DNA of 64,000 bases, taken from assembly GCA_965153455.1 (NCBI GenBank), contig OZ234493.1:6810213-6874212 (forward strand), in the 5' to 3' direction. Below are positions 8,074 to 33,103 of this stretch, one piece after another. The position numbers and the translations under genes were made by a program. The notes beneath the pieces are model-generated. The model searched no databases, was not told the DNA's origin, and worked only from the letters and a program-made list of their open reading frames with translations. How positions within the stretch are numbered: the first letter of the stretch is position 1; each line of letters begins with the position of its first letter. Origin of the DNA: Sphagnum compactum (Eukaryota).

Positions 8074-11000
8074 ACGTGCACTAAAGCAAGATTTCCACCA
8101 ATGTTCACCAAAGCATTCAGAGGGCAAACGCAACCAAAAGTTACAGATGGCTATTGAAGCCAAGCTGAAAGAGAAGCAATCTGTTCTAACAGATTGCAGA
8201 AAAGCCCAGTTGGAAGCAGAAATTGAGAGTGACAGATGATGAGAGATGGAGTTCTACTTTAGCTTTTACTTTTAAGGCAAATGATGAAATCAAACCTAAT
8301 TCAATGAAAGTTCTTGCATGGAGAAAAAAAGATGAAAAAAATGAATGAAAAATATAGAACCTACCTAGGTAGGTGTGAGAGGTCCCCATTGGGGTGTATA
8401 TAGGGTATTGGATTTTATGAAACTGATACCCTGTCAATAGGATATTTTCAGGGTATCTAGAACACTGATACCAGGCTGAGTAGGTTCTTGGTCGGGTACA
8501 GCAAAAAAGAGAGTAGAACCAACAGGTAGATTATTTGATACCCGGACATGGACCCTGATTGATAACCAGGTTGTTTTTCAATAATCAGCCAACACCGGTT
8601 CACACACACAGGGCCTGAGGTCTGGATGTGTATTGGATTTGTATTTGCACCATCATATCCCATGGACTTGGTTTGTTGTCTTATGACCAATGTTGAGCAC
8701 ATATGAGAACACCCACCAAAGCCTTGGAGGTTATAAGGTTATATATACACATTTACCTATTGATGATGATTTTTTTGAAAGAGTAGGAGCTCTAAGGAAC
8801 TCACACTTCTCAAGTGCTCACTTATCCACAGTCAGCATCACAACCTAGATTATAACTATTTACAAGATCACCCCCACTTAGGTAGGTAAGATGTCAGAAG
8901 TTCTATAAGTGATTTGCCTATACACCAATTCATACCCAATCATATAACTAGAGGATTCATGTAAGTTATTTCATTTGAAATGTTGAAATATCAGACTTTT
9001 GAATTGTCACCAAAATGAAGTTATGGGATGCATGTATTTTACAGACATAGAAATATAGAACCTTAAGAGCATGAAAGGAATAGGGGTCCCTTGGGTGAAC
9101 CAGCCAGCACCTACACTTAGTATCATGAAAAACTTTGGGCATTACATTATAAATTGTAACCTTTCTGAGTCCCGATTAATCGATCTGCCCATGATTTACG
9201 ACCTTTCTCTTGCAACCGTGATTCTTGTGCTCCTAAAATCCCGTAGTTGCAGGTTCTCTTGAATTCATAACGTACACAAGAAGGCAAGTGTCAATGCCTT
9301 TCATCCTGTGAACCGAAGGCAAAGCCTGAGGTCCAGGGTGGAAGGCACCTTATTTGCCTTCCCCTTTGAAACAAATGAGGTGATCTGACGGTTCAGATCA
9401 CCTAATGCTCTTGCCTGAGGGACTTCATGTGTAAGATCTCACTCCGGAAGGGTGGGAAATGATGTACCTAGTGTAAGGTGTCCTCACTTTACGCACCACA
9501 GAAATAGTCTTTCAGATGATTCTGTGGAATCGACTTTTTTTTTGTTTTTTTGTCAAGTTGGGTGGGGATGCCCCTATCTTATGGGAAGTAGAAAAAAATA
9601 TTCAGTTTGACATTTATATGGTCTTGCATGGTTCTAGCTTTCAGATGGGGCCACCATAATACTTCTTCACATGAGTTTCAGGCTTGGGTGTGGTGGCTGT
9701 CAACCATACAGGCCTACAGCATAAGTACAATTTTCACTTTCCTACATTACATTAGAGTTTACATTGTTGGACTTTTCAAGTCCTGGGTCCCCACTCCCTA
9801 TGCTTCATAATAATATCTAAAAATTGAGGCTACTAAATAGGATAGACTGGCTCATCACCGAATTGCCTGCCTATGACCAAACACTTATTTATGTCTTCAT
9901 CATATGTGCTTCATTTTGAGTGGTTTAAAATGTTATGCAAGCGCTGCCTCAAGCTCTACCAATCATCTTTGAAGTGCAAAAGAAAAGGAGTAATGAAAAG
10001 TTAACAAGACAAAGAAAAGCTTTCCAACATGCAAAATGCACTTTTTTTTTTCCTCTTTGGACTCTCCTACTTTCAAATCTCATAACTTTTTTAAAAAAAT
10101 TAATCTTTTTAAATGATTTAAAGTGCTATAGGATCATCACTGAAGTTCTACAAATCATCTTTGAACTCTAATAACAATAGAGCAACATACAAGGAAATTT
10201 TTGCATGTTTGAGAACCAGCCTTTATTATGTTTGTTGATTTGTTTTTTTGAGTTCTTGACCCCCTTTACTTTGGGGGCCCATAACTTTCTCATTTTAATT
10301 CATTTAACTTTCTCATTTTAATCTGTTTTCGACCATTGTTAGTGTGTCAGATGCACCAAGAGGAGGTGTTCAAGCTTTGTTTAAACACCAGAAACAACGG
10401 AGCCCTCCCCTTGCATCTGGCTGCCCTGAATGCTTAAGTGTTCAGTCACAGACCAATCTACCACAGTGACAATTTACAAACCACATGATGGGTCTTTTTT
10501 CATTTTTAATTAAAAAAGTGTCAAAGTTTGCAACAGAAAACGTTAGTGCTCATGGGGTATTACCTTTAAAATTACATATGTCCATAGTTGTTAATGCAGT
10601 CAGTACAAGAGTACTGCTGCAATTCTTTTTCCCTGAGTCTGCCCTTTGCCCCATTTTTTTCACCTTGACATTTCTAGACATGATTTGGGTCCATGTCATA
10701 CATGTTTTGGGCATGTTAGTGGTGCTAGGGGGGGTACATAACATCCTTCCAAGACCCTTGGCACATGCTACCTGACATTGTTATGTGGCCCTAACACGGG
10801 AGGTTATGGGTGCAAAACATGACAAGGTGAAAAAAAACAAGGCAAAACTCAGACTGAGGATAAAAAATTGTGGCAATATAAAAACCGTCCAGCAACTCTA
10901 GGGAGAGGGGGATGCTGCTTTCAACTTTTAGAGCACCCTAGAATTTTTTCTCCTCAAAGTCAGAGTCTGGTGCCTTCAAATTTAATGTCTAGACATATTA

Positions 11001-13120
11001 GGCCCACTTTACACTGCAAGTCAAGGCCAATGTGCAACTCAAATCAAGCATTCCTATCGGTGCAAAAGTTGAAATCAGCCTCAAGGGCTTTACACTAGGA
11101 GTCAAGGCTGAAATAACAAAAAACATTTTCAATCTACCCCAAGTTAGTAATAAATGCTGAACTCTATGGCCTTGTATTGGCCCCAAGGGTGAAAAAACGA
11201 TACCATCAAATCTGGGAAGCCAATTTGCAACCCTTGGGGCCCAACAAAAAGCCAAAATATGCTCAAAGTTGGCTCCAAGTTTTTTCAGCCCTGACTCCTG
11301 ATGTCAAATGGGGCCTTTGGTCCCACAAATAGTGACAAAATGATCCCAAAAGAATGTCTCCTAATTGGCTGAATGTTGCTGGCTGTGATGTTTTGAGTAC
11401 AGAAGGTGCAAAAGTTTCAAATCTATTTGATATTGGACAACACAATAGATATTTTACAGATTATAGGAACCAAAACAAATCATCCCAAAAGGCGGGGGTA
11501 GCTGGCTGGAGGAGGAGACACCATTCCCCACCAGTGTTAGCTGGTGAAAAGCACCAATAGTCCACAATCTAGAGTAATTAATTTTTTTCTGTGATATCTT
11601 CCAAATGAGGGCATGGAAACAAGGTCCCATGAATGACACCATTTCACAATTCACTATTTCACAATTCCCAGCCAGTGTTGCCACAGACAATCCATATAAT
11701 CAGGATTCATATTGGATTTGTATCTGCACAAACTGTCCCATGGATTTGGTTCTTTGTGTTATGACCTATGTTGAGCACTTATGAGGACTCCCAGCAAATT
11801 CTAGAGCTGACATGGCTGATTTTGTGAATACTCACAAGGTGGTTGCTAGAAGGAATTCAGTTTCAGCTTTTTCAAGTGAATGAAATTGAGGTGAATCCTA
11901 AGAAAACCAGAAATTTTTTAAAACCATGAAAAAAGAAGAAAATTGAAAGTTAAGTTAATCCTCTCAGATGTTAATCACGCATTTTTATCTTGGACCCTCG
12001 AATTGGAGTCCAAGCTGGAGTCCAAGCCTTTAGACACACTCACGCGTACCTCTGGAAAAAATTATTTATTTAGTTAAGAAGGGTTCAATTCAAGGTTGAA
12101 TTTGCATAAAATTGGTCCCTTGGCTTTTGATCCCTGTACCCTTGTCTAAAGTGGCCCTTATGCTCCTTTTCCATGTGGCCCAATCACCTTCTATTTTCTG
12201 AAAAGGAGTTTCCAGTCAAGGTTTTCATGTGCAGAGTTGGATCCAACCACCCAACTACTATCTGCTGAGTCTTCCCCTGGGCTGTTGGCCCTCCCCTGAC
12301 CCACTAAATTGGAGGCATGCCCACTATTTGTTATTTTGATGGCACCATTAATGACAAGAGTTAAAAACACATATAAATCATAAGGTCATTGCGATGTGGG
12401 TATGACATGTGATTGCTTTCATCACTACGCTTTTACTGATTCCTTAGTAGGTGTTCTAAAAATAATGGGTGGGTAGGCCCATGGAAACAGACCCATGCCC
12501 ACATGAGCTGGGTGTGCTCCTTGTCAACCGGAGAGGCCAACAGAATAATATTTGCACTTTTCTATGTTCAAGTTTATCTTGTTGGTCTTTTGAAAACCAA
12601 CCAGTTTTATGCATTGTTACCTTTTGTCAATTTTTTGATGCAACCCGAAGTCCACAAAAGGGCAGAGCCAAAAATGGCTATCATCAACAACAGGATGGAG
12701 AACAAAATGGCAATCATTCACAACTACCTATTCAGACATCCTTTTCTATTTTGACTACACACTGAAGCAATGGTGGTGATTCCACAGATACACCTTAAAA
12801 ATCTGGCAATAAAGTCTTTTCTATTTTAAATTCAAAAAAGTGCCAAATTTCGCACCAAAAAAATCTCTGGTATTGGGAGTATTAATCTTGTACTTTTTTG
12901 TAGGTTTGTTCTTAAGGTGAGATTATGGGTGGTGGTCTGTAAGCTTCACTTTTGAAGGTTCATCAGTACCTAGGAGGGTACCATGGGGAATCAATGGTGC
13001 AAACATTAGTTACACTATGAAATATGCCAAATACACTATCATATCACCATATACCCTACAAAACCTTTTGGTACTCTTGATATCATCGGAAAGCCCTTGA
13101 TGAGTACCCAATAAAGAATG

Positions 13121-13412
13121 CAGGGCCGATTTTTGGGGCAAAATTTCCTCATCTGGTGACCCAAAAAAATGGGGGACTACCACTCCTACAGAGGTTTTTT
13201 TTATAATAAAAATGTTACAAAGTCACCATGTTTTGAGGTGAGAAAAAGTTGAATTTGTCACATTTAAACCATAGCTTTTATGATGTCCCCAGAATATTAT
13301 AGCATGGTTCCAAAATATTCTCTATTGCGCTCTTTGTCCTGCAAACTTGGCTAAGTCTGTTCTGGAGGATCCCCCCTCCACCTTCCTGACAATTTTGAAA
13401 AAAAGCTCCCTG
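13121..13412. mobile_element. MITE-like element with CAGGG...CCCTG ends; member of a dispersed family carrying the 'ttagccaaatttggcta' core
   Basis: Begins CAGGGccgattttt and ends aaaaaaagctCCCTG. The internal 'caaacttggctaagtc' motif resembles copies at ~23510, ~32385, ~38990, ~43705 and ~51140/51450. No clear TSD. Confidence 0.4.
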
Positions 13413-13576
13413 CTCTCAACTAAAATGTACTGTTTCAATAAAAGCGTATTGAAAGTACAAATAGGCAAATAGTAAATTCATGGGAACCTGAAAATGACTT
13501 CCCACAAAGAATGGACAGCAACAGCATTCAACACCATTTTTAACAGTCCTTGACCTGCCCTACCTTGCTTTTCTCA

Positions 13577-13958
13577 ACTTAATTAATTGAAGCGTTAAGC
13601 TGGTTACAGAACGTTTTGTGCCCCAACATCTGAATGTTACTTATTCGACTGTATCTTCGCCTGCAAAAACTGTGAGCAAAATCCCCTCAAAATGGTTTGC
13701 CCCATGGTAACTTGACAATTATCACACATAGCAGTAAACAGGACGACAGTGTAAAAACCGCAAAATCACTTAATTAATTGAAGCGTTAAGCTGGTTACAG
13801 AACGTTTTGTGCCCCAACATCTGAATGTTACTTATTCGACTGTATCTTCGCCTGCAAAAACTGTGAGCAAAATCCCCTCAAAATGGTTTGCCCCATGGTA
13901 ACTTGACAATTATCACACATAGCAGTAAACAGGACGACAGTGTAAAAACCGCAAAATC
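13577..13958. repeat. Direct tandem duplication, 2 x 191 bp
   Basis: 13577-13767 and 13768-13958 both read ACTTAATTAATTGAAGCGTTAAGCTGG...GTGTAAAAACCGCAAAATC, with no differences that I could see. Confidence 0.95.
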
Positions 13959-14734
13959 TGATTCTGAATTTCTTCAGCCTTGTCGGGAAATTTTATGCAA
14001 ATTTCTATCTCTCAATTTCAATTCACACAAATCTTCTCAGATTTACAGGATTGCCAACATCTGCCGAGATCTGATATAATTCTAATGACCAGATCTGGCT
14101 CGGCAATTACTCCAACAATGGCGCAATATTAGATGAGTCATCCTCCATCAGAATCTTGTGAGTCAGAGTTGTGATCATCATATGGGGCCGTGGGTCCTAT
14201 AGAGAAAAAAGGAAGATCAGAAGCTTATGGATCAGTGCCAGGCAAGTGGACTGCTGTCATGGCACTCCAAAGTTCCCGCTCAAGGATTCCTTCTCGTACC
14301 AAAAGTCTACGGACTAATTTAGGGTCCGGGGATGATGCTGCTCTGGAAAAGTGATGCCGTGACCGCACTCCCAAGTTGGCAGAAATGGAGCATAAAAAGG
14401 GCCCAACCCAGTGACTCCTCTCACACAGCTCATTTAATCTCCTTCCCACTATGACAGTTTGCATCAGAGTGACCCATTGCCGAACTTCGGGTGTACACAC
14501 ACAGCAGCGCAGAGGGACCCACACTAGGGACGCCTGGATTTCTTGCCACGCTCTGATCACTCAGTATACCTCTCAGTCCTAGAACACTAGGAAGCTGTTA
14601 CTCTTCTCTCGGCCTTGGGCTTTTCAGAGCTCAGACAACGACATCTTGCAGAGTCTGTTTGTTTCCTTGTATCATTTTGTATGCAATTTCCCTTAATTCC
14701 TAGTAATGAGCGACCTCGATCCAGTCTAAATTCC

Positions 14735-14741
14735 TATAAAT
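14735..14741 (+). promoter_or_regulatory. Candidate TATA box (CTATAAAT context) in the CpG-rich region upstream of the TRN1-like gene
   Basis: ttccTATAAATctgg lies in a ~14.1-15.6 kb stretch that retains CpG, unlike the flanking CpG-depleted DNA. A G-box CACGTG is at 15182-15187. Confidence 0.3.
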
Positions 14742-17622
14742 CTGGATCTCCCCGCGCCACAAACTGTCGTTTCTATTTGTGTGTTTGAACTCTTTTAACT
14801 CAAGTGTCTAGTGTTATTGAACGTCCAAACCAAGTAAGAAGGGCGCTGCATCCTCGTTCCTGGGTATCGACAACCTGCCGAATCTCTCCCTCTGTGCATG
14901 CCCCGACCACACCGGAGTTTCATGTAAGCACGTTGTCTCTCGCTGGGCGCGCTCCAGAAATATACAGTACAGATCACTAGTCGATCTCTCTACGGTAAAG
15001 GACGATAGCTGCAGATGAGGAGTGTACATATTTGCACTTTGAATGATCTGGGTGAGTGATTCTTTGATGAATACTAAATTTTCAACTTGTGATCGTGGAT
15101 TCACACGCATCTAGCGAGTTTGTAGAGGTCGGTATCCTAACATTAATAGGTATGGTAATGGACAGGTGTGCTTGGTAGGACCACGTGATTACAGCGGACC
15201 CACGTAGTAGAAATCAAAGAACCATATCAAGGCGTAGTGATGGTGTGAGCCTTGGACATGAGACGGTGACCTATGCAGGCCCGAGGTACTCCAGGTTCAT
15301 GTCTGCTTACCGCAAGGATCACCCAAGGCAAGCCCTCGGTTCCTATAACTCCAGTTCAAACTATCAGAGGCCCTACATAGTTTTTCACAGTTACATCTAT
15401 TCTCTTTCTCTACAAGAGAGAACTGTGTAGACTTGCACTCTTTGTAGCGTGGTTTTCTTTCAGCTGCCGCATCTGGCTGTAAGCTTTGTGATCGTAGTGA
15501 GTACTAAAGGAACAACATAATATATTCTGCAGCTTCTCTAGCGTTCGTCTGCCTTGGTCGGGCAGTAGTGCGAGATGAAAATAAAAGTTCCAAAACCCTT
15601 GTCCGACAAACCATCAACTTTTCAGACACCTATATCTAAATTGTGGCAAATGTTTGGGCTGCAGATATATCCAGGGAAAGAGTTCCTTGGCCCCGATTCA
15701 CTGGTTCTCGAGGAAGGGCTATGTGACTGGAGTAGGTGACTCTGTTTGTTGAACATCTCCGAGAATTCTCCTTTTAAACCAGGGTTGTTCGCAATCTATT
15801 GAATGCTCTAGATCTCCCAATAATTTTGTGCAATTATGTAAGGTTTGTCTGATTGTATGAACACTTCGAGTGTGCCTGGATTTCAATCATGTCAAAAGGG
15901 ATTTTATTACGGTAGCACATAGTACAAGTTCGAGAATAATATATGCGATGATATAATAAGTTGCTTCCTACTGACCGAAAGTTATGACAGGTGCAAGATT
16001 GGGGAGGAGAATAGTTTTGCAAAGTGTGTTGGAGTGAAAGGAAGCGGGTGCAACTGTTGTTGATAGAAATCAATAGCTATTAATTGAAGGAGAGAAACCA
16101 AAGAATTTTGGCATCTATTTCCCTGTATAGGAGGAATCGTAGCCGGAGTTGAAAGAATAATTATTTTCTGATCGACTTATTCCCATCTATTGCTCAATTC
16201 ATTTACTAATTTTTGAAGGTATGAAATACTCACAGTAGTTGTCTGTTCACTGAGAAATGGGCCAGTTTGTCCAGCAATAAACTGTCAAAGAATGAAGCTT
16301 AGAAACAAATTATGAGACCTAGGATGTTGATGCGCAGAGGTCGGTATCTGGTTACTGAAACAAACATGGGTTTAGCACATATGAGGATGTTGGGGAAATT
16401 TCCAGGTGTCTATATATTGCAATGTGCACTCAAATTGATAGTGATAATAAGCTCAAATTCTTGCAATTGCAGGTTGTCGTCACTATTCATTCATTGCTTT
16501 TGAAAACTTGGAACTCGAGCTTCTTGAGGAGACTATGACATTTTACAGCAACAGAAAGAGTCTGACGCTGAAGTGGAAAGCAAGGTAAATATCGGGGAAC
16601 CCCTCTCTGGCAGAGTGCTCAACTTAACTTGCAAGAAAGTACAGCTTCATTGGGTTTCTCTCTGTGTTCTGTAACATCCATACCCATATTCACTCGTAGT
16701 GATATTCCCATTTCTTCCAAGAAGGGCGTGTAGACTTAGAATGGAAATCTGAGGAAAAGCTTCCAAACAATTTCTGAGCTAATAATTTGTCGAAAGAGAG
16801 AGTGTAATTTGTGAATGAGGCTGGCCAATGCTGACTACTTGCGATCAGTTCATGCAGGCAAGGAAGATCCTAAAGAATCGTGGAACAGTCTTTTCTTTCT
16901 TGAGATACTGTCTGGAGCCCCAGTCCTCACGTATGGATTCGTTTCCATCCTTTTCAAGCAGGCTTTCGTTATAATCACGAAGTGTTGAGTGCTGGTTTGG
17001 CACGACCGACATGCCAAATCCTCCGTGCAGGCACTTTCATTTGGCTTAGATTTTTTCACCAGAAGATTCACATGAACTTATATCAAGGTTCTCTATGAAC
17101 ATTATTATAATCGCGAACTTGGAGGGAGAGCTGGCCAAACAGATTGGAGGAGTGACGCCCATTTAAAAGTCCCTTCTTTGATTTGTAGAAAATCAACGTA
17201 TGTGATTTACACTTCTGATCCCCATGTCCACACTCATAATGTCCAGTGCTTAGTGTGCAAATCCAAAGCTAAGCTCAAGTATTGTGTGAACCATGTATCG
17301 GGATGGGAAGGGTAGCATATGTGCAATAATACAAGTAGCTCAAATGAAAGGTTGAACCATAATGGCACTGATTTGACTAAGTTTATGCTTGGAACACAAG
17401 ATTGGTGTAAATCTCAATGTACTCCAGAAATTGTACACTTGGATATAGTTTACGAAACTAGTACCATCATTCAAACTTCAAAACTACAATATTCCATCAG
17501 GTGGCAGTCATTGTGAGAAGAAGATCTGGATATGTGAAGCGTTGGAGGATCTTACAAGAAGTTTCATTGATGTTATAATGTTGCAGATGTGATTGTGATC
17601 CGCCTCCAACAATTGTTGGAAA

Positions 17623-20600
17623 ATGGAGTTGGAGGCATCTTTCGTGGCGATTAATGATCCAGGCGATCGAAATCTAGGCGAGCACCAGGGATCACGTAGC
17701 AATGACTCAGGGAAACAAATTCCACAAGAACATTCTCTATCAGAGATCATCCTTTTTGAAACATCGCATGAGTCTAGCGGAATTCCTGACCAAGAATTTC
17801 AACAAGTGGAAAGTCACGATCTTTCAAGCCTCGATCAGCTTCGCGCTAAGAAAATGCTTTCAAATTCTCCACCACCAAAACGAAATTTAGTGTATCTTAT
17901 CAAACCTGGTCGAGGATGGGAAACTTGTGATGAGGTTATCTCCATCCTAAGAGAATCTCAATTAGTTGAACTAAATTTTGCTATAAGCAATTTCGAGGAG
18001 GATGGATCCATTGAAGCATATAGAGAAGATTGCATGCATCTTTTTGATGTTATCGGTAAATGTGAAAGCTTGAAATCAATTGGGATGAATGATTCGGAGG
18101 AGTTCAATGTGGAGGAAATTTTGCTTTTACGTCCAGCGTTGGAGAAACGCATTGAGGGCTTTCAGTTAGATGTAATTGGTTGCGACCAAAGAGGAATGAC
18201 AATTTTACGTGAAATGTTGGCCAAGAATAATGTCCTTAAACATGTATGCTTTTGGGACGTTGCAGATGGACAATTGGCAATTTTATGTGGAATTTTGCCA
18301 AAAAACCATACCTTTAAGCCAATTTTGGATCTTTTATTATCGCCAGCTGTAACAATCTCTGGAGCTGCGTCCTTGGTGTCAATATTGGGTATGACTTCAA
18401 TTGTGAAGAGTTTGGACATTAGCGACACCAGAAATTTATTGGGCTCTAGTGGACTCGAGATGATACTCGGTCCCCTTATTGGTCACTTGGAGAGTCCACC
18501 TGCTAATCAATCAGTGAACGAGCTTATGTTAGGGGGATGTAATATTGGACGAGATGGAGGAGCAATCAAGGCTGTTGTTGAAATGTTGGGCACAAACAAA
18601 ACCCTTATGAGATTTTCAATATATGGGGACCCCACTTTAAAACCAGTGATAATACTCCATCCCCTTACTGGTCACTTGGGGAATCCACCTGTTAACCAAT
18701 CACTCAAAGAACTTCTCTTTTGGCGAAATAATATTGGAGAAGATGGAGGAGCAGTTAAGGCTATTGCTCAAATGTTACGCACAAACAACAGCCTTACAAA
18801 GTTTTCAATAGTGAATGACCACACTTTAAAACCGTCCGATGTGTGTACAATTTTGAGTTCATTGGAGAACAACCAATCTCTTCGGGAACTGGGATTTTGG
18901 ACTTGCGACGGTGTTGAAGGACCTGACGTGTTGGGCAAGATAATGGATCTCCTTCGAGTTAACCCTTGGTTGACAGGTATTGACTTGCACTTCACTCCAT
19001 TGGAACGACAGGGACAATCTGCACAAGTGAGTGCACAACTGGAAAGAAATGCCCAAGATTATATGAAAGTGGTGAGGGGCATGCCTCGAGTACTGCCCAA
19101 GTTTATAAAAGTATTTTTATGTGGGAATGCATACTCAGGCAAGCCCTTCAACTCTACTTCTATAGAAAAACATCTTTTCCATATCAATTTCCTATGAAGC
19201 CAACAATGTTTGTTGAATTGGACACTACTTGTATAGTTCTTTGGCATAAATAGAAATGACATTTCATTAAGCACACAATATCTCACCATCAAAATTATTA
19301 TTTTACATGTAAATTACCATGGACATGTCATATTAACTATAAAAGTTCTTGACAAATAATCAATTAATAAATTCAATATATCTTGTCAAACCTTATTGTT
19401 ATAACCTATCATCTATCCATAATTGGGTATTGGGTAAAGTTATCCACATGTCTTTGCATGTTAAAAGCATTTGTTTCCTTCCCAAAAGATTAAAACCTAA
19501 TTTTTTTACAACTAGAAAGGAGTATTTTCATTTGAACAGTTTCAAAATGACCAACTAGAATGTTCACTGTCAAATTTTTTCAAAGACATTCAATTGGGCT
19601 TTATCTAGTAAATTCTTTCATTCATGTATCCCTAATTGAGAGGTCAAAGATGGACATTATAATGCGTGTGCAATAATTTTTTAATGCCATGAACTCTTTA
19701 CAAACACATTTTGTAAAAAACAAATTGTTCAAACCATCATCTAGTCAAAAGTATGGCAATCGTAAGGACAAACAAAAATACTCTAGATGGTTGGTGCTTT
19801 GCTTTAATAGTGCCACTTGTTAGCAATTGAAAAACTATATAATAACTTGAAAAATAACACTATACATAAATCCATGCTTTGTTTGATAACAAAATGTATA
19901 ATCATATAATATATATTTGTGGATAATTAATCCAACACACTTCTTATGTATTTATAAACAAAGATTTCAAGGAGTTTCTTTTGTTTCAATGCTTTGGTTG
20001 AAGGAAAATAGTTTTAATGTTTTAATGAAAGTTCATTGGTAACGCCCTTGGTTCAAAACAAGCTCAAAAATCAAGATAAAATATTTTAGGATGTATATTT
20101 GTTGACAGTTCAATTAAATCTTCGTACAAACTAGGGTTCATTTTCAAGTTTACAAACATTTCATATGAATCACACCATATACCTAATGTGACATGTTAAG
20201 GTTTCTTAATTTGATCATGTTGTAAAAAAACTCCATTTGAAAATATGCATGGTTATTTCATCATTATAAAATATTTGAACTTTCAATTGCGCATTCAAAT
20301 ACACCAAACGCTAAAATTTGAATCTAACTCTTTTTCACCAACATGTACAGGCAAAACTACATTAAGGAGATCAATGGCTAGGAGTCTTGAGAAAGGAATC
20401 AAATCCCATTTCATTCCATTGGTGGAGATCATTGAATTGCGAAAAACTTTCAAATGTTGTTTCAATGATCCAAATGAATGGGACAAAAGAACACGAGGGA
20501 TAAATATTAAGGTTCTTGTGGATAACCTTGACATGAAGGTTTCCATATGGGATCTTGCAGGCCAAGATGAGTACCACGCTTTCCATGATATGATGCTCCC

Positions 20601-23386
20601 AGATTTGAGCACTCAAGGGAATGTGTGTTACTTTCTTTTGGTTTGTAACCCTTTTCTTTGGGATCACTCGGGGAAGCCAAAGACTCCACAAGAACTTGAA
20701 GCTGAGTTTTCTTATTGGTTGAGATTTATTTCATCAAACACAAAAAGGTCATCCAACTTTGCACCACGAGTGACAATTGTGTCGACAAACAATGACCAAG
20801 AATACATTCATAAACAATTTTTGGATCCTTGTGTGAGAAAATTGAAGGCAAGATTTGTTGATTTCATCAACTTATCTTCAAATACCCATTCAATCAATGC
20901 ACATTGTTCCCAACAAGCAAAACAAATGTTGAAAGATGTGACCACTACTTGCAAAAATGTCCTTGAAAATTTGCCTAAGGTTTATGAAATATGTTTACAA
21001 GTGCAACTTGGTATATGTCAATGGATCAACGAACATCCCAACCAACCCATTGTGAGCATGCAAATCTTTGAACGAGAAATATTTGCTAAAACCGCTTCTC
21101 AATTGCAAGTATTCGCACCTCAGTTGGCCCAACCAGAATTGGAGAAACCACACATTGCAATAGCAATGTTTTTGCATGATGCAGGGGAGATTATTTACTT
21201 CAAGAACGAGGATTTTGTTGTTTTGAATTTGAATTGGTTTTGCCACAAGATGATGGGTCACTTAATCAAGCTTCGAGGACATGTGGAAAGTACGAATTTG
21301 GCAAAAACATTTCCTAATGGCTTTGGGGAAATGGAACATCTTGAAATCCTTTTGGGATCCTCTTTGAAAGCTACCGCTAATTTGGTGGGCCTAAAGAAGG
21401 ATGAAATCCTCCATTATCTTGTTCGTTTGATGGTCAAGATGGATTTTGCATATGAAATTAGCATTGTGGGAGAATCTGACTCCCAAAGTGTAACACACCT
21501 TTTTGTTCCCACTACATTACAATTTGATCAAAGTGTTGCGAAAGGTGAACGACGTTTGAAATGGACTTCACAATTTTCTTCTGATGCGGAGGTTATTTAT
21601 ATTGGACAAAGATTGCAATGTGGTGACCAAGAGCACACGACCCTTACCCCAGGGCTCTTTCCTCGAATTCAAGTAAGAACAAAACCAATCTAACTTGAAC
21701 TTGAAAAACAAGCATTATCATGTTAGAAATGTAGCATAGAATTGATTATAATCTTGCTCACAAATATAAGTTTATTTTCTATAATTGTTGGGTTTTCACA
21801 CTAGAATCTTGACATGGCAATGAAAAACCTTTTTGTAGGTGGCGTTGCATAATCATTTCGAAGTCAATTGGAGATATGGACAACATGTGAATGAGAGAAA
21901 TCTCATGAAAATATGGAGAGATGGTTTGGAAATCTTCGTCGAGTTGAGTGGTGATGAAATGGGTGGTCATGTTTTCATTGATGTGCTCGTGAAATCTACA
22001 AAAACCAAGTTAAAATCCCTTCAACTTGTGAATGATCATGTCTTGAGCCAAATTGAACACTTGTGTAGTGTTGCCCAAGGTTGTCAAGGGGTTGCACTTG
22101 TGAGAGGGGTGTTGAGGCCAAAAGTTGTGAAAAACCTAGTGTTATGCAAAAATAGAAGGAATCAATCAGTGTTGGTTGAAGACCTTAAACAAGAGTTGGT
22201 TGAAGACCTCAAACAAGAGTTGTTGGTAGAAAACTTTGAATTATCACAATGTGTGCATACATGGCCACAAGTGGATGTACCTCTAGATGATCCTGATTAC
22301 TTAAGCATTAGTATGGATGACAAGGTCACATCACTTTTGGGTGAATTGCAAACATTAGAGGTGTTAGAAAGACATTTTCGAAACCTCAAGAATGCGGAGA
22401 TGGATGTTGACAACTTTCATGTTGATAACATGTCAATGGAGAATGCAAGAGATATTTTCCAAAGTGACAATGAAACTTTGGATGTTAAGCCACAAGGCTC
22501 ATTTCATCAAAATTCATCCAAATTTTCAAACAACTTGCAACATCGTGACATTAGCAACAATGATGTTGTTGCTGAAATAAGATCAATGGAAAATAGGATC
22601 ATTGATGGTGTCAAACAAGAATTACAATCTATGGAGAAGAGGTTGGAAAACCGAATCATTCACACATGTGAGGAAATTCGAGTTATGGAACAAACCTTGT
22701 ATGGAAAGGTGACAATGAAGGTGGATGGGATCATGAACCTGATCTTGCAATTGGACCAACGACAAGTGCCATGCAATTTTTATTTCACCACGCCTGGGAC
22801 GAAACGTAATCGTCAACTTGTCATGAAACTATTATCTGGAATGGAAATTATCCATCTGCATTTGTTATGTGAGCATGTTGATGGCATTCATGTTGTGAAA
22901 AAACAAAAAGGTGTTGAGATTAAGTTGTCCACATCAGCAACAAGGGAAAAAATTAATCATTTAATCATGGCTAGTCTCACAGTTTTTTCCCTTCTTGTGA
23001 AAGTGGGTGCCCATGTGACAGCAGGAATTGGTAACATGATACCAGATATTGGGCACATTATTGCATTGACTTGCGACACAAAATGTCTTAATGACTACTT
23101 ACCTGATTCCAAAGGAAGTAACCACCAATCCATAATCACAAATCTACCTACTTCAAGTGATGCATTAATGGCAATGCAAGGAAATGGAAAAAAGGCTGCT
23201 GAACAATGGCTTGTGAACTTTTTAAAGGGAAAAGAAATATTAGATTTATTTACTTTGAGGAGGGTTAAATATGTTAAGATAACAAATTGTAATGAAGGCT
23301 ATCCTATTCGGTGGGTTTGTGAACACCATTGGAAAGAAGGTATAGAGAGAGGCACACTAGAAGATTGTGCATTCAAACCTACTTAA
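17623..23386 (+). CDS. TRN1: TORNADO1-like LRR-Roc-COR (Roco) GTPase, ~1461 aa; exons 17623-19138, 20351-21672, 21839-23386
   Basis: Ribonuclease-inhibitor-like LRRs (NQSLKELLFWRNNIGEDGGAVKAIAQML..N.SL). Splicing restores the P-loop VFLCGNAYSG|KTTL (GC donor 19139, AG 20349-20350). Also G2 RTRGI, G3 IWDLAGQDEYHAFHD, YWLRFISSN, COR-region LHDAGEIIYF, GLFPRIQ|VALHN (GT 21673, AG 21837-21838), and C-terminal LHLLCEH...AAEQWL...RWVCEHH. All are TRN1-family hallmarks. Exon lengths sum to 4386 nt, in frame. It is probably a diverged paralog rather than the strict ortholog. Confidence 0.88.
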
Positions 23387-26300
23387 GGTGGTTCTTTTAA
23401 TTTTATAGACCTTATACATGCCAATGCAATTCATTTTTATTTGAGATCATGAAAAGGTTTCTTTTTTCACTTTTGTGGTGTAGCCACATTAATAACCATC
23501 CATAAGAAGATTTAGCCAAATTTACCTATAGGAGAAGTAGTATGATCAATTATTTTTGTAATTTTGTTGTTGTCTTGCAAATTGCAAAAACAAGAGCTTG
23601 AAATCTAGTCAACCTAGTCCAAAGACCATTTTTTCTAGTAATTTATGTCAAAAATTTCCAAACAAAACATTTGTAGGGATTGTAGCCTAATTGTTTTCCA
23701 CAATTTGGTAAAAGTTTGCACAAAAAAAACCCATTGATCATGAGATTACAACCAACATGGAATATGATATTAGTTTGTAGATCTTACATACATTAGGATA
23801 CACAATTATGCTTGTAGATGTCCTTAATTGGTCAAAATGTTTGATTTAAGTGTTTGATAGAAATATCCTTGTCATCAAAATCAAATGTCTTACAACAATT
23901 TCAATTTCAATTTCAATTTTCTCAAACATTCATAGATCACTTTGACACTAGACATAAAACTATTTGAATATTCATTTTTTTGGTTTGGGGAAATAATTAA
24001 CTAACTATAATCTTTAAATAGTTCGTGATTTCGAAAAACTACATAAATGTTTTTAACATCTATTTGATTGGTAAAAAGGTTGGTCTTGAATGGATGTTGG
24101 TGAATGGATTTCATAATAAAGATGTTACATTCAAGATTATAATGTGTGATGGGAAAATGTGTAGAATCAAATGGAACCCATAATTCTTATTTTTAATTAT
24201 CAATCATAATTACATGAATTCATAAGTTTATGATTATTTAGTCATGGGTTGCTAAAAACATATGTTAGATTTAGTTGGTTTGAATAGTGTTCATATTTTA
24301 AATAATTGAAATAATAATGAAGTTAATCATCTTTGCTAGTTTGTCAATACTATAGGAAGGAAACATTGTTCATTTAAACCTTCTAAAGTGGTTTGAACTT
24401 TTTGACATTCCTAGGATTCAATCAAGTAGCTATAGACTTTACATATGAAGACAAATGGACATTTTTATTTGGGATGAATGCATGATTTGGTCATTTTGTT
24501 TAACTTTTCAATATTGCAAGAAAAAGTTAATTTCGAAAAATAAATAGCTTGAAATATAATAAACACCATTGTTCTCATATTTAATCCTCAAATTACGATA
24601 GTGGGTGTCAATGTTATGAATTTAATAGGTAATTTTGGTGTGTAAATAGTTAGGTGCAATTGTTAAAATCAATGTATTTCAAGATTTTGCTTGGACTAAA
24701 ATTTGGTGAAAACATTCTATAAAGTAATTGGAGCACAATTTCCTTGCATTGGTCTATTAAAATTACTTGATTGTTGAGACCCAAAATGATAAAAGGTTTA
24801 CAAAGTGTCTTTATATGACATAAAACAAATGATAGAATGTCACTAAAGTTTTTGAGGTTCAATAGGTTGAAAATTTGACATAAAATTTGACTTGAATTAA
24901 GAGCTTAATTGTGGGTGACAAAAGAGAGATTAAACTAAGTTTTCTACATCATTTTCATGAAGTTCCAGTAAAGCATAACATTTGCTTACAATTGGTAACA
25001 TAGAAAATGTAATTAGGCTTTTAATTGTTGAATGTTAACAATTGATTATTATTTCAAGGGGTCCAAATGGTTATAAAGAACCACCTTAAGACATAACTAT
25101 GACTTAATTTCATTTGTGATAAATGATAACTTCAATCATTTGAGGTTTTTTAATCAACTTCTACAACTATATTTTTTATGTATTATGTGAACATTTGGCA
25201 AAATTTGAAATGAAGCTAATAAGTATTAAATATTGATTTTTATTTAAAAGATCATTTGCTAACTGCTTAAAACATTGTTTTCACTATTTAAAAGACTTTT
25301 TGAATGATTTCAAAAAAAAAAAAATTAAAAAAAAACAATTATGGGAATTCTTTTAGGACCTTCACATATTAACATAATGCAACATCTTTTTGAGTCATAA
25401 CAATGAAATCAAACAAAAAAATCAATTTGTAAAATATCATTCTATGAATATTCTACCATTAAGGAATTCAATCCTTGAATACAACCAAATGATAAAATTA
25501 TATATGCTAAAAATTAGGTATTAAACTTGGGATCATTTCAAAGTCCTAAACAAATTAATGATTTGCATCAACTCATTAGTTGGTGGGATATTGTTCATAT
25601 ATATCTAAAACCATTTTCATTTTATTTGTTATTTTTATTCAAATTTTTCATATATATTACAATTTGTATAAAAGGTTTTGTCAAATTGCTTTTTGTTAAT
25701 CAAATTATCAAAAGAAATTGGCATTTTCCTTTAAAGGATGAAAATAATTTTAAACAATAATATTTTTACACTAGGTGTTTAATGAAGATCATTACTTCAT
25801 GTAATACTTCATGTAAGAAATTGAAGGTTAAACATGTTCAATGTTGGGCCAAAGTTAACCTAACCCAATTTTGATTAGGAAGTCTAGGGTGGTTAAAAAA
25901 GTTTTGGGGTGAACTAGAAGGTCTAAAGGGTTAGGTTTGTGCCTATGACCTTATCCTTGTAAGACTAGGTGGATGGCCTGGTTAAAATAATGGAAGGAGT
26001 AGGTTGGTTGAATTAGGATAAAGTTGAATGCCTTATCTTTGTCCAACCTTGCCAAACCTACTGGATAAGAAGGTCCAGATGGGGGGGTGAACTTCCTAGA
26101 AGTTTATAGCAATTAGGGGTCTTACATGGTTGGGTGGACCAAAATTTAGCAAAAAACAACCTGGCCCAAAGTCCATTTTGCAAGCTTTATAATGTGCACG
26201 GTGTTAACACATGATGATGACAAAATGATATTTATCCATTCTTAGCAATTTTTTCCATATGTGATTTGTGCATTGTAAAGGCTAATGATTTATATAAATC

Positions 26301-27061
26301 TAAAAATTTAAACTCAAAAGACCTTTGTTTTTAATTGCTATGGACTTTTAAAAATAAGGTGTGTTTTTTCAACAGCCAAAAGTCCATAGTGTAATACCTC
26401 CAATTCATATGATGCAAAACTCTTTTGCATTGTTTTTATTAATGCATTTCCACCTTGAAACCAATTCCCTAAACAAGTTCTAGATCCATCATTGAACTAA
26501 ATTAAAGTCCATTTGCCTCATTGCAATTAGCCTTACATCGTAGTTTTAAAATTTCAAAAGTTCATAGCTCTTGGGATTTTATGTTTTTTACATTAAAAAA
26601 ATTTGCACCATGTATTATTTAAGTCTTATTTGAAAATGAGTCCCTATTAACCAAACCCAACATATGTAATAAGTTATAATATTTGCAATCACACCCACTA
26701 TAAAAAAAGTACCCCTGTGATGCCAAAATTGGTCCACCCTACCATGCCAACACCTTTAGGGTTAGGTCAAAAATGTGATGTTGGCATTCCATGGAGCTAT
26801 GAAGAAAGAGAGTTGTTGTTGATCTCTCTTCCTTCTTCCTAAGTGCATGGGACATGAAGGGGTGCGAGGAAGGAGGAATGATGATGATGTTTATAAGGAT
26901 GGGGGTGGTGTTTTGGGGCATTATGAGAGGTTGAAAGAGGTGGGAAAGGAAGGAGGTTGGAGTATCATGAAGAAGCAAATTACTCAAAAAGCAATCTAGT
27001 TAACATACGTCCTAGAGATTGGAGGCAAGATCCTCAAAGGTGGGGTGGCGGTTGCTCAACA

Positions 27062-27215
27062 CACTACAACAAAAGGTGTCCCTCTATACCAAGTGATTTC
27101 ACTAGATTTTGAGTGAATTCACTAGTCGTAGCGAAAGGGGATTAGTGGGGAAGCAATGAATTCACTAGTCTAGTGAATGGAGACTAGTGAATCACACCCA
27201 CATTTTGTAGTAGTG
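27062..27215. mobile_element. 154-bp non-autonomous CACTA (En/Spm) mini-element
   Basis: TIRs CACTACAACAAAA ... TTTTGTAGTAGTG. 3-bp TSD ACA at 27059-27061 and 27216-27218. Internal subterminal repeats TTCACTAG / CTAGTGAA in both orientations. Confidence 0.88.
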
Positions 27216-28644
27216 ACAAAAGGCGTTCACTATGTATGATGATTGGAGGCGAATGGGAAGGGAGACAAAAAAAGGTACCTGAACCTATTGTTTGAGAAAG
27301 GAGATAAAAATAGAAAAGAAAACAAATTTTTTTTTGGGTGTGTGGTTAATTTAGGAAGAAAATTTAGGCTACCCTTTTGAAAAGACAAGAAAAATCATGA
27401 ATTAAGGGTGGTTGTCCCATGTGAAAAGGGAGAGAGTGTGTGTGAAGAGATCATTTTTGTGTAAGGTACAAGCTTTTGGATAGTTATAGAGCTAGGAAAT
27501 GTGGCAATGGAGGATTGTAAGGAGGCCAATATTACGAGATAGTTAGGAGTAAGACTTGGGAGTACTTGAACTATAAGCAATGCACTATACCTTTTTCTTG
27601 AAGATGTGAAAACTAAGTGTGCAAGAACTTGTTAAATTGCATGAGAATTGATATTGTGTGGGAAATGGTATCATTAGATTAAGGTTGCACCTATTTAAGT
27701 GAGTTAAGAAACGAACTAATAAAGAAAAAGAAGTCTATTGTCCGCAATAGCCAGGAAAAGGGAAATTATAATCAAGAAACCTAAAGAAAAGGAGTTCCTA
27801 GAATAAGAAGTACGATTGTTATCTGCAGTAGACAAGAGAAAGAACTATAACTAGGAGACAAGGAAAAAAGTTACTAGGAGAAGGAGGTGGCTTGGATTTA
27901 ATTGGAACCTATTAAAGCAGAACTAAGGAGTAAACAAAGTAGAAATTGAATGGTAAATTGTGAATCCTCCTTTTGACAACATCCAAGGGGGTAAGGGGGA
28001 GGGACCCATGTTAAGGTGTTAATGATGCACTAACTTTACACTTATTTTGGACAATAGTCTTACTCATGAAGTTAAATCCCAAAGGGTGGGAAAGGCTACC
28101 TAAACCCCACCAATTTCATAGGTATTAGTGTTATGTCATGGGGCATGCAGTGAAAGCACATTACGGTGTAGACAATTTTAGGGAAAATTGGGCCTACATG
28201 TAGTATAAAAAGTAGTAACACATAAGATTTCACTCACTTTGAATTTTTCTAGAAATCACATGTAGTTAATTTGATATTCAAACATAAAATAAGTTATGAA
28301 ACCCATCAATATGTAATTGATTGGTAGTTGTATCATTGTGTAAAAAAACACCAATAATTTTATAGACATTGAATTAGAACCCCTATTTTATAACAGATTT
28401 GCGTCTTTTTATTAATTTTGAAAATTCATCTTTTTAATGTAAAATGGTAAAAAAAACCTCTATCCGATCTACATCTTCAATGGAAGAACATTTTACAACT
28501 TAAAAATATCACAATTTTCATCATTATTATAACATAATGTACTAACAAATGTTGTGAAAACATTTAATATGAACTTCACAACTTGAAAATAAATTGAGAA
28601 TTTTAGTGAAGAAGATTCTTCATCATGGGGTGCAAATTCTTTAA

Positions 28645-28879
28645 GGTGTACCAAAATCTTGTCATAACGTCACCCTATTCTGTCTTTTTTACCTAGTCAT
28701 TTTTTACCATGTAAAAACACATTTATGGATGATTATGATGGAATCTAAAATTGCAATAGTCTAAAATATAGACCTTTTGAAAATTTTGACAACTTTTGAT
28801 TCATTTTATGGGGATCAAAATATAAGGTAAAAAAGGATTATAGTAAGGACTAAACCCTTTTTAGCCTGTGTGGTATACC
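28645..28879. mobile_element. Short TIR element (GGTGTACCA...TGGTATACC) flanked by TTAA
   Basis: TTAA at 28641-28644 and 28880-28883 flank the inverted termini. A related copy lies at 46846-47072. Confidence 0.5.
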
Positions 28880-31800
28880 TTAAAGTATTTTCACCCCATG
28901 GTTGTATTTTTACATTTGCAAAATTTCATGCATAAATTACCATTAAATCTTGTCCTTTGCAGTCATTTTCTACAATTGTAGCATTGTGACAAAGTTGTTA
29001 CAAAGTGAAAATGTACTCCAATTAATAGTTAATTTGTTCATATTTGTTCCAGTTTCATTATACAATGTTATATTGGGATGTAAACCACCATTAATTATAA
29101 ATTTTAGTAACAAGTTGTTTTCCAAACATCCACCATGATATATCAAAGTTCCATAGGTATCGAAAGCTATCAAACTCTGATAGTTTTTTGTCTACACCAT
29201 AATGTGTTTTCACCCCATGGAAGAAAGCAGGCTACTTGAACTTTATGGAAACAAGTCCAATGTGGATATTACTAAATTGCAATAAAGGCATTAGACCCTA
29301 TCCACCATTCAAAGAATGTGGTTTAGGGAGTTTTGACAAATTTCGCAAAAGGGTGTTGCTTCAATTATAAATTTTACCTTTTGCCCACTTGAGGTAATCC
29401 TATGAAGCCCAAGGTTAGGATGACAAAATTATGAATGATTTCATTGGATACCTATAAGAATTGGTTCCAATTGTTTTTTCAAAAAAATGATCATGCTTGT
29501 CATGTATAATTTGTGTACATCTACCAATCAAATTTGGCATACACATTTATGGGTGTCTTGCATGTTTTCTTACTAAGGATCACCTTGTATGTGTAAGTTT
29601 GATAATCCCATGTAGTTTACAAGTGTCAAGCGTCCTAAGGATAAAAAAAATTATAATTTTTTCTTCATTTATTTGTACACAACTTAGTATTATGTGTAAT
29701 GGCAAATTTGACTGTCATCTATTGGAAGTATTCCATATGTACTTTTGGCTCCCCAAAAAAAGGTTGAGAAGGGTGTGGGTGTGCCTTCATGTTTAGGCCG
29801 GAAGGGTTGTAGATGTATTAGCCATGAAAAACCATTTATTCCAATGGGAATGAAATGTTTCAAACATCATCATGACTAATTTTTGAATTTTGACTATACA
29901 TCCATCAAATTTTTTTATTAGATTTTTAAAAATTAACTTTAAAAAATCATCATGTGAATATAAAATTGAAGACATTTTGTGTTGCAATATGCATAGATGC
30001 TTAGGGCTTTAAGGGTTAAAACAACTTAATCCTCTTGGGCAAATCATAAACACACTCACTTTGTCTTCAAAATTACACAACCATGTCATATGGTTCCATC
30101 ATCTTTTTCCATTATTCATGATGGCCCTACCATTACAAGATGAAAGCATACAAACTTGTTCAAAATATTCAAGATTATCGTTGATTTGTCAAATGACATG
30201 GCATTAAAACTCAATGAACTCAAATATGATTAAAATGTTTAAGGATTATAAGTGTAACCCACATGCATATTGAACTACGTCCCACTTTTATAAAAGATCC
30301 CTAACAACATCTAGTCCATTTACAACCCTTAATTAGGTCTAGCTCTATTGCAATGGTGTTTGTCCAACATATAATTATAATTATTCCCCATCCCAATGTC
30401 CATCCATAAACAAGAGAAAGTTAAGAATAGAAATGAAAGACACATTTAAATATCATCATATGGGCCAATCATTATGGTTTGTTAATAAAAACAGTGTGTA
30501 AAAGGTGAAGGGCATCAAATCTTATTTATAGGCCCAAAGTAAATTTCACATTATTTTATTGATATATTTCATCGAATATAAACTATATATGCCATTTCAC
30601 TATTGTGGGTGAAGAATCAACTTGCTTCAACAATTGAAAATTGACTATGTTTTTAACAATTTGTTTTACAAGACCAATACCCCTACTTGTAGCACAAGGT
30701 CAAACTCCACATTGACAAAATGAATAATTTATTTTTAAACATCTTTATCTTTCTAAACTAGTGGACATCATAATTTTCATGATTCACAAATTCTACTATG
30801 ATCACTCCATATGAGTAATGAAATTGTTCATGCCACACTTGTAGCTTGCCATAACTGTTACAACATTCAACATCTGAATGTCATATTATCACATAAATAC
30901 ATTTCAATATTGGAAATAATTTAAGGATGAAACTACCCCTATGATAATGCATATGAAATCCACATGGTTCTTCACCAAATGTGCTTGTGAAGTTATTACA
31001 TTATAACATCCAAACAATATATTGAAATTTTTGGGGATTTAATTAACCATTTTGGCCAATTTTTTACAATTGAATAAGATGAAAATTAAGAGAACTAATG
31101 CAATTTTTGAATTCATTTTAAGAACTGGAACTTACTATTTTCAAAAAAGAAATTGAGAACCATTCAACAAGTGTGAATACAGATATAGGAGCCAAAAACC
31201 ATGTCAAATAGTGGTGAAAATTGTGAATTGTTTTACATTTTTTTTGACATTTTAAAGTTATGTTAATCATTCCAAGTTATGCTAAGTGACTAATATGAAT
31301 GTTGAAAAATTCAAATTAAAAATTCATTAAATTAGTTTTTGGGTTTTGGTTTCACCAAACGATGTTTGAACTTGAATAGGTGCTACATCAGATTGTGGTT
31401 AATTTTACAAAGGATTATATAAAGGACTATTGTACTAACATAATTTTGATGGTAAGAAAATTTAAATGATAGTAACCTACTACCCAAGTTCAAAAAACAC
31501 TCCCAATTGAAAAGATATGGAATTTTAATTTTTAAAAAATTCAAAGTATTTTTCAAAATTTTAAAATTTCAGGATTCCAAAATAGGTAGTTGCATCCATC
31601 CATGATTGCAAATTTGTTTACTTCACACGAAGCATTAATGAGAGTGCACCAAAAAGGAAAAAAAGGTTGTGCATTAATGGCTTATGACCCATTTGTAAAT
31701 AAAACATAAATTAGTATTGTTTGGTTCATTATATAGTTCAATATCTTCAAATAAAAAGTCGTAACAAAGGTTATATTCCTATTTTATGGGTTTGTCAATT

Positions 31801-32794
31801 CCATAGGAATGCAAATATAGCTATTGGAGGCACACTTAAGGATTGTCCATTTCCACCATGTAAAGTGATTTGATGTGATTTACATTCTTAGAATACAATC
31901 AAGTTGTTATAAACTTTACATGTGAAAAAAATTGAAATTTTTGTTTGGGATCAAAATATGAAGCCATTTTGTTTACTCTTTAATATTGCGAAAAAATGTT
32001 CAATCCTAAACCACTGCAAGATAGTGTGCACATTTGTTGTTTTTCATTTTTGAATGAATGGTAGTAATTTTTGTCTTTCGACATTAGTTTTTAAAACTTA
32101 AAGAAAATATTCACAAAGAACTTTGAAATTAAACCCACATCAATTGGAAAAATATTGAAACGGGTGACTTTATAGTAGGTATAATATACTTGGGCCAGCT
32201 ACATAGAAGTCAATTAGTTAACTTCGCAAATTGGGAAAAAAAAAATCATTATCCAAATATCAAATAGAGTATTTTCAAGTTCATCAATATTGTATCCTAA
32301 AATAGGATTTTATACTGTAAAAATTTAGCTAGTTTTACAAAGCAAAATTGGATTGGGCCCAAGTGGAGATCAACCAGAAAACAATTTAGCCAAATTTGGT
32401 TATAAAAAATGAAAGTAAAAAATTTCAATTATCCTTCTATAATTTTTTTTATCTACTTGAATTTAATATAAAATTTATAATTTTTTTGAAAACCCGAAAA
32501 ATGCTTACTTATTCTTCACCATTTTGAAAAGAAAAGGTAGCATATGGCAAATTTCACACCCAAGCCACAAATAATTAAACAACACTCGACCCTAAATGCT
32601 TTTCAAATTCACCAAATAGTATATGTTAAATGCATCCTAAAGTAGCATAGGTAAAAAGACTTTCTTTTGGAAATGAACATTGGTTAGTTACTTAATTAGC
32701 TAGTGTCAAAGATGTATTTGATGTAGTAGTTTATTTCTTTTTCCATTTTGTGATTTCATGATGTTACTAAAGTGGTGATCATTCATCATCACGC

Positions 32795-33103
32795 ATAACA
32801 TTGATTCTTCATCTACTATTATTACTAGGGTTGAAGTTAAGAGCAAGAAGTTCATAGGCACAAGTTGCTACAATTTTGGAATTCAACTAAATAGTGTAGA
32901 ACCTGGATGTTGCATTTGATTGCATCAACAGATTGATCATCACCATCAATGGGCAATTCCCATCACCCATGATTCAAGCAATAGAAGGAGACACAATAGC
33001 GGTGAGGTTGAAGAACAATATTTCCACTAAAAGCATGACCTTACATTGGCATGGTATCCATTAATGTGGTACATGTTTCTATAACAACATTGTGTTTGTT
33101 TCA
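32795..33103 (+). pseudogene. Decayed 5' fragment of an L-ascorbate-oxidase-like multicopper oxidase (signal peptide plus start of the first cupredoxin domain)
   Basis: One frame from 32795 reads (ATA, likely a mutated ATG)TLILHLLLLLGLKLRARSS*AQVATILEFN*IV*NLDVAFDCINRLIITINGQFPSPMIQAIEGDTIAVRLKNNISTKSMTLHWHGIH*CGTCFYNNIVFVS. INGQFPxP, EGDT and the copper ligand motif HWHG are diagnostic. There are four in-frame stops and the fragment ends after ~100 codons. Not present in the ORF track. Confidence 0.85.

Follow-up and report, generated by a model that had tools for sequence, protein, structure and literature searches.

The window described here is a stretch of 64,000 nucleotides from Sphagnum compactum (assembly GCA_965153455.1, contig OZ234493.1, positions 6,810,213 to 6,874,212 of the forward strand), and the gene of interest in it encodes a leucine-rich repeat (LRR)-Roc-COR protein related to TORNADO1 (TRN1). 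Positions are those of the window. Translation starts at the ATG at 17623, and three plus-strand frames join to give a protein of 1461 amino acids with one terminal stop, letter-identical to P0001, a database entry titled "unnamed protein product [Sphagnum compactum]". An earlier sequence-only reading had described a complete frame of about 1461 amino acids over three exons; its coding exons stand, but the gene has four more introns upstream, within 15732-17586. The features are as follows.

15500..17622, plus strand: spliced 5' leader, from RNA joints, with introns 15732-15990, 16219-16472, 16585-16857 and 17185 or 17198-17586
17623..19138, plus strand: coding exon 1, with the acidic N-terminus, the ribonuclease-inhibitor (RI)-type LRR region and the first half of the G1 P-loop
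18459..18833, plus strand: tandem duplication in the LRR, 189 bp x2 (63 aa, two repeats), 78% match
19139..20350, plus strand: intron 1, GC-AG, phase 1, inside G1, 1212 nt, 156 spliced reads
20351..21672, plus strand: coding exon 2, with the Roc GTPase (G2, G3, G4-like) and COR-A
21673..21838, plus strand: intron 2, GT-AG, phase 0, 166 nt, at the COR-A/COR-B border, 241 spliced reads
21839..23386, plus strand: coding exon 3, with COR-B, linker, long helix and TORNADO1-type tail
9496..33010, plus strand: segmental duplication common to two C7 loci, about 85-90% identical in long matches, >23 kb

The RNA evidence consists of raw stranded poly(A) reads of run X24, with up to four runs pooled under the same species label. 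Both coding joints are found in RNA reads (156 and 241), which removes the earlier proviso that the gene might not be expressed. In X24, plus-strand depth is about 90-295 over the exons and 14-21 over intron 1. Of 9186 placed reads, 3200 are at least 99% alike to the window gene (the remainder come from paralogs), and a depth of about 93-101 is kept across the most divergent part of its LRR; the window copy itself thus appears to be transcribed in S. compactum. The leader contains at least four introns with GT-AG ends, each joint supported by 53-89 reads, to which close paralogs may contribute. The last of these introns has two alternative donors (17185 and 17198), 13 nt apart. The 938 nt of leader assembled hold nine upstream ATGs, the longest upstream reading frame having 67 codons, and the 5' end lies beyond the assembled part. 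Metatranscriptome contig sets X2, X3 and X13 were considered as transcripts of the gene and set aside; they match mostly at 90-99% and represent relatives instead. Intron 1 has the same position in the paralog models and is absent in L053. Its GC donor is common to L001, L002, L022, L042, L046, L047 and L049. Depth over intron 1 is about one-tenth of exon depth; retention would stop the frame at 19197 and give an LRR-only product.

The N-terminus (approximately residues 1-82) is acidic and probably disordered, and the LRR region spans approximately residues 83-492. A Pfam scan of the window protein leaves the LRRs undetected. A profile of 14 first exons matches RI-type LRRs (RI, E 5e-15; 5irm, E 3e-10) and also those of LRRC34 and the NLRP type. 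The single-sequence AlphaFold model of exon 1 has a mean predicted local distance difference test score (pLDDT) of 42 and is usable around residues 360-460 only. Among the 14 aligned first exons, the 189-bp duplication is restricted to the window's clade. It is one of two internal duplications, as the sequence-only reading had claimed; the other is a 24-bp unit repeated 2.2 times (22171-22222). The nucleotide-binding motifs that it had called canonical are present (G1 GNAYSGKT, G2 RTRG, G3 WDLAGQ), and GTP binding by Roc is predicted from these intact motifs. The Pfam matches to Roc (E 7.8e-5) and COR-A (E 4e-5) are both under the gathering cut-offs, and that to COR-B is also weak. The fold of COR-B (residues 947 to about 1120) matches the RocCOR structure 3dpu (Z 10.5, root-mean-square deviation 2.4, 126 aligned) and the LRRK2 structure 6vno (Z 7.8). 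The COR-A match and the COR-B fold place COR directly after Roc. The window protein has no Pfam match to NB-ARC or NACHT, the ATPases of the signal transduction ATPases with numerous domains (STAND) class.

The AlphaFold model of exon 3 (515 residues, 92-sequence alignment, mean pLDDT 72.5) gives the order COR-B, low-confidence linker, a helix of 64 residues (1186-1249) and tail (1255-1461). The single long helix corresponds to the coiled coil proposed before the C-terminal module. The tail is modelled as a β-sheet with an inserted hydrophobic helix, and hydropathy exceeds 1.6 in a 19-residue window in 52 of 91 sequences. Of the 92 aligned sequences, 91 conserve C1290 and H1297 and 88 conserve C1440; at position 1443, 74 have His and 12 have Cys. 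We infer a zinc site. The family PF27087 has a precomputed match on P0001 and on TRN1 proteins alike. The tail, searched against 1.84 billion representative sequences, matched 80 proteins. Twenty-one of them were scanned with Pfam, with Roc or COR in 12 and another Pfam domain in none; of 10 looked up, seven have a name, all from streptophytes. Foldseek with the exon 3 model gave no match at E<=0.001, and its structure alignments (VIA-align) span mainly model residues 1-299 and barely cover the tail. The tails of P0001 and P0055, a TRN1 protein, had no usable match in the ESM Atlas. A two-copy complex prediction of long helix, tail and zinc scored 0.02, which carries no weight either way.

Trees were calculated on Roc-COR plus tail with FastTree (119 sequences) and IQ-TREE (LG+F+G4, two subsets, of 42 and 48 sequences), with a Marchantia paralog as root; three unsplittable proteins and short fragments were excluded, and the sampling leaves out gymnosperms, lycophytes and hornworts. 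All sampled Sphagnum copies form one clade. Ceratodon copies join it in IQ-TREE (Shimodaira-Hasegawa-like approximate likelihood ratio test, SH-aLRT, 92.6 and 96.6), while FastTree leaves their placement unresolved. The moss clade is sister to angiosperm TRN1 (IQ-TREE SH-aLRT 98.1 and 83.8). In Roc-COR, the 14 Sphagnum copies most similar to P0055 are 33-36% identical to it and the window copy 33%, and a genome search with the TRN1 N-terminal LRRs gave a best match of only E 6e-6. A separate conserved moss TRN1 orthologue was rejected as far as these searches reach, no Sphagnum copy standing out; L053, which lacks intron 1, resembles TRN1 no more than the others do. As the moss clade is sister to TRN1 and no copy stands out, the window gene is, by sequence, a co-orthologue of angiosperm TRN1, many moss copies corresponding to one angiosperm gene. 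The fast-evolving paralog proposed earlier is thus fast in its LRR region and groups with TRN1 through a sister clade, but it is neither a direct one-to-one orthologue nor a paralog that accompanies a conserved TRN1 in moss.

The gene shares with TRN1 the RI-type LRR, Roc, COR, the long helix and the same tail with residues conserved in both, and these features, with the grouping in the trees, place it in the TORNADO1 family. It departs from a one-to-one TORNADO1, which would be single or low copy with a conserved LRR. Angiosperms have one or two such genes, whose known phenotype is developmental and concerns the leaf, against 60 or more loci in Sphagnum; there is hardly any match between the N-terminal LRRs, and most angiosperm G3 motifs read WN. 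In 120 angiosperm TRN1s, G3 is WN in 99, WD in eight and unmatched by the pattern in 13, so the contrast drawn earlier holds for the majority; the seven angiosperm WDLAGQ proteins are from magnoliids and Ranunculales, and nearly all moss copies have WD. On this comparison the Asp (DxxG) is ancestral rather than a novelty of the window gene. At least two homologues also occur in Ceratodon, Marchantia, Calypogeia, Riccia, Chara and ferns, so the small number of copies in angiosperms may be a derived state. Co-orthology, the shared architecture with its conserved tail residues, and the failure to find a separate conserved TRN1, so that some copy may do the developmental job, would all fit an expanded developmental family that acts in patterning together with tetraspanins, as TRN1 does, and in which subfunctionalisation and relaxed constraint let the LRRs diverge. 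We consider this unlikely in view of the decay and selection data that follow.

A Roc query of the 382-Mb genome gave 61 matches, corresponding to 60 loci, and a tail query gave 75, both counts being lower bounds. The gene is therefore not single copy, and the lineage expansion suggested by the sequence-only reading is borne out. Of the 60 modelled loci, 31 are intact and show the architecture usual for the family, and 24 carry stops or frameshifts, although single defects could be assembly errors. The other five are L016 (insertion), L022 (model not settled), L052 and L054 (tail-less) and L059 (fragment). That 24 of 60 loci are broken argues against the developmental family. Forty of the 60 lie about 100 kb or less from another locus, in clusters of 12 on C4 (in 0.4 Mb), 7 and 3 on C13, 6 and 2 on C16, 4 and 2 on C2, 2 on C6 and 2 on C7. 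The window copy is dispersed. In S. fallax and S. magellanicum, the genes closest to it have adjacent gene numbers on chromosome 3, and Roco subfamilies are retained across several Sphagnum species.

The gene is real and expressed, and the expansion to which it belongs is apparently undescribed. Plants are credited in reviews with one or two ROCO genes (PMC11378527), restricted to flowering plants (PMC4104024), both of which a family of at least 60 members with receptor-like evolution contradicts. In the open literature, subscription papers and supplements being outside its scope, we found no report of a Roco expansion in bryophytes or other land plants, and the main text of PMC13069868 does not mention Roc, COR or Sphagnum.

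Selection tests were restricted to intact copies, with the N-terminal region defined as everything before Roc. The ratio of nonsynonymous to synonymous divergence (ω, Nei-Gojobori method, NG86) is 0.73-1.54 before Roc versus 0.31-0.57 in Roc-COR in seven of seven clades, so the uniform purifying selection across the LRRs that would have contradicted the sequence-only reading is not seen. Bootstrap intervals lie above 1 in clades A2 and B and below 1 in the window's clade (0.60-0.94). In our own implementation of the M1a/M2a site models, a positively selected class (6-25% of codons) is found before Roc in six of six clades, with twice the log-likelihood difference (2ΔL) at 41-181; the signal in Roc-COR of the same six is weaker or absent (0.7-31). 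The values, N-terminal versus Roc-COR, are as follows.

Window clade: 79.7 versus 0.7
A2: 130 versus 2.5
A3: 109 versus 8.7
B: 181 versus 31
C: 145 versus 10.4
D: 41 versus 2.5

The M8a/M8 comparison for the window's clade agrees (2ΔL 79.4). Site models on the tail gave no signal in three of four clades, with 2ΔL of 11 in clade C. Before Roc, second-codon-position divergence exceeds fourfold-site divergence in five of five clades (1.3 to 4.2 times), in Roc-COR in none, and N-terminal second positions diverge more than intron 1 in four of five. Identity among eight Sphagnum members of the window's clade is 78.9% in the N-terminal region versus 90.1% in Roc. In the first-exon alignment, repeat after repeat, variation is concentrated at the strand motif or immediately behind it. 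Ten of the 18 top sites in the window gene (posterior >0.8) fall at variable positions of the LxxLxLxx strand and five in adjoining loops, as judged by eye without statistics; in the best-modelled part of exon 1, five of five are in predicted strands. Whole repeat blocks have also been gained, of 63 residues in the window's clade and 57 in L003 and L005. The concentration at strand positions and the ω above 1 in A2 and B, with intervals excluding 1, speak against relaxed constraint in a developmental family.

We read these data as a family of sensor GTPases inside the cell that turns over by birth and death and probably serves defence, and give this a probability of roughly 55%. Several observations weigh against it. 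Without multi-hit codons, in which more than one base has changed, 2ΔL falls to 0.0, 0.1, 1.0, 0.5 and 8.5; the signal rests on such codons, and multinucleotide mutation or gene conversion may therefore inflate 2ΔL. N-terminal ω in the window's clade is below 1 (0.73 by NG86, 0.84 in the site-model analysis), with only three sequences in the tests. Fourfold divergence in this clade is 0.036 in Roc-COR versus 0.120 in exon 1, and this unevenness in the sequences suggests gene conversion. Weak selection signals also occur in Roc-COR of A3, B and C. The LRRs of angiosperm TRN1 are themselves less conserved than Roc (67.4 versus 74.4%; 15 of 120 proteins), and the one plant member that has been characterised acts in development (PMC4104024).

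The dependence on multi-hit codons, the uneven synonymous divergence along the window's clade and the position of the window copy inside a duplication of >23 kb could together reflect largely neutral amplification, in which duplicates build up and decay, with the LRR/Roc-COR contrast produced by gene conversion and multinucleotide mutation. Real hot spots and multinucleotide artefacts would both be expected to lose their signal once multi-hit codons are removed. Such codons number 70 of 486 in the N-terminal region and only 8 of 639 in Roc-COR, and from repeat to repeat they come back at corresponding positions; with the retention of subfamilies across species and the ω of 0.31-0.57 in Roc-COR, this makes neutral amplification quite improbable. 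The selection and turnover would fit any recognition arms race, and fungal NLRs act in allorecognition (PMC13449251). The family could thus serve recognition of self and non-self other than microbial, such as allorecognition among clonal moss gametophytes, gamete or sporophyte-mother compatibility, or endophyte partner choice, by means of the same switch with its variable LRR. Expression in bulk RNA does not indicate reproductive tissue, and we hold this too to be unlikely.

The defensive sensor reading draws on analogues elsewhere (PMC3341825, PMC11378527, PMC8195603), which count in its favour. Brown algae have 37 ROCOs and 20 pseudogenes, proposed as immune receptors (Zambounis et al., PMC3341825), and receptor candidates are also described by Teng et al. 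(PMC11378527). They resemble the Sphagnum family in the LRR-Roc-COR architecture, tens of copies, clusters, many pseudogenes and positive selection on the LRRs (PMC3341825, PMC11378527). The pattern of selection on exposed LRR residues is matched here, with the provisos that sites were placed by eye and depend on multi-hit codons. The algal proteins differ in that each 24-residue LRR is its own shuffled exon; in Sphagnum the repeats are longer, of RI type, lie entirely in exon 1 and vary by substitution and block duplication, with no exon shuffling of the brown-algal kind. Bacterial AP-GTPase (Roc-COR) conflict systems have the same layout and a predicted function (Kaur et al., PMC8195603). 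Common to both are fast-evolving N-terminal LRRs, a GTPase-COR core and a variable C-terminal effector position; bacteria have at least 24 effector types, whereas Sphagnum has one dominant tail, lost in two kinase-adjoining copies. The immune roles of the brown-algal and bacterial proteins are predictions as well.

Plant NLRs are NB-ARC-LRR proteins with sensor-switch-output logic, clusters, birth-and-death turnover and selection on the LRR strand face. The Sphagnum family resembles them in each of these last four respects and differs in having a Ras-like Roc-COR in place of a STAND ATPase and in the reversed domain order, with the sensor N-terminal. The window gene is a Roco and a member of the TORNADO1 family; it is neither an NLR nor an exon-shuffling ROCO, and it evolves like both.

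LRRK1/2 and Dictyostelium Roco kinases carry the LRR-Roc-COR plus kinase order. The window protein has no kinase and shares with LRRKs the COR-B fold. In L052 and L054 (C6:19.03-19.08 Mb), LRR-Roc-COR ends after COR-B and the tail is absent; about 680 nt past COR-B, an open frame from a splice acceptor encodes a helical region of about 195 residues and a kinase, giving the LRRK gene order with a helical region before the kinase. Helical regions beside the kinases are presumably MLKL-like. In L061, from the same C6 region, COR-B and kinase exons are tandemly repeated and fused in frame, and seven of seven metagenome contigs (84-94% identity) have Roc-COR followed by an open kinase frame. The kinase order is seen in genomic DNA alone, and splicing of COR-B to the kinase is a candidate joint; no conserved phase-0 donor for it could be picked by eye. 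None of 26 longer-protein matches carries a kinase, which is weak evidence on annotated Roco-kinase fusions in plants. Convergent kinase gain among Roco proteins has been described (PMC11378527). The tail-less, kinase-exon order is found at L052, L054, L060 and L061 and at L075-L081. At L062:3730-6213 (C1:22.03 Mb), a single frame of 828 residues combines helical region, kinase and TORNADO1-type tail.

We infer an immune role for the Sphagnum Rocos. The protein would consist of a variable LRR, a Roc-COR switch and an exchangeable C-terminal output module. The LRR of each paralog would bind a different non-self or modified-self ligand, and binding would alter the GTP-dependent dimer cycle of Roc-COR, a cycle derived from work on Chlorobium Roco and LRRK2. 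The long helix would then move the tail, which probably binds zinc, or in two paralogs the kinase, and so lead to a defence response. Angiosperm TORNADO1 would be the single surviving member, kept for development. A wider proposal is tentative, and we lean against it: that mosses, and probably other seed-free plants, have non-NLR Roc-COR immune receptors, variable and intracellular, in which the zinc-binding tail is an output domain interchangeable with a cell-death-type helical-bundle kinase, making an independent LRRK-like protein, and of which TORNADO1 is a domesticated remnant. The family bears on the proposed sensor role of the LRRs of LRRK2 and MASL1. Ceratodon and Marchantia, with several copies each, offer a tractable setting for asking what simple LRR-Roc-COR proteins sense and for the biochemistry of TORNADO1.

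Further loci were seen around the family. The insertion of about 8 kb that splits L016 (L068, C13:15.08-15.09 Mb) holds a reverse-strand frame of 1188 residues, which we take to be retrotransposon-like. L064 and L065 (C12:14.53 and 14.17 Mb) are near-identical partial copies of the 3' part of L053. L069 (C7:1.80-1.81 Mb, minus strand) has free LRR exons, with frames of 529 and 400 residues that contain TRN1-like LRRs without a Roc match, followed by a frame of 677 residues. L070 (C1:27.82 Mb) is a presumably RanGAP-like LRR frame that the search with the TRN1 LRRs picked up; it is not related to the Roco family. Elsewhere in the window are the 3' end of a PIKK-family kinase gene (249-817; PI3/PI4-kinase and FATC matches), an exon of a phosphorylase-superfamily gene (39528-40037, minus strand) and an exon of a Rho GDI gene (61399-61935, plus strand). 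A perfect 191-bp tandem duplicate at 13577-13958 either arose very recently or reflects an error of assembly; at 37829-38188 a 113-bp unit is repeated three times.

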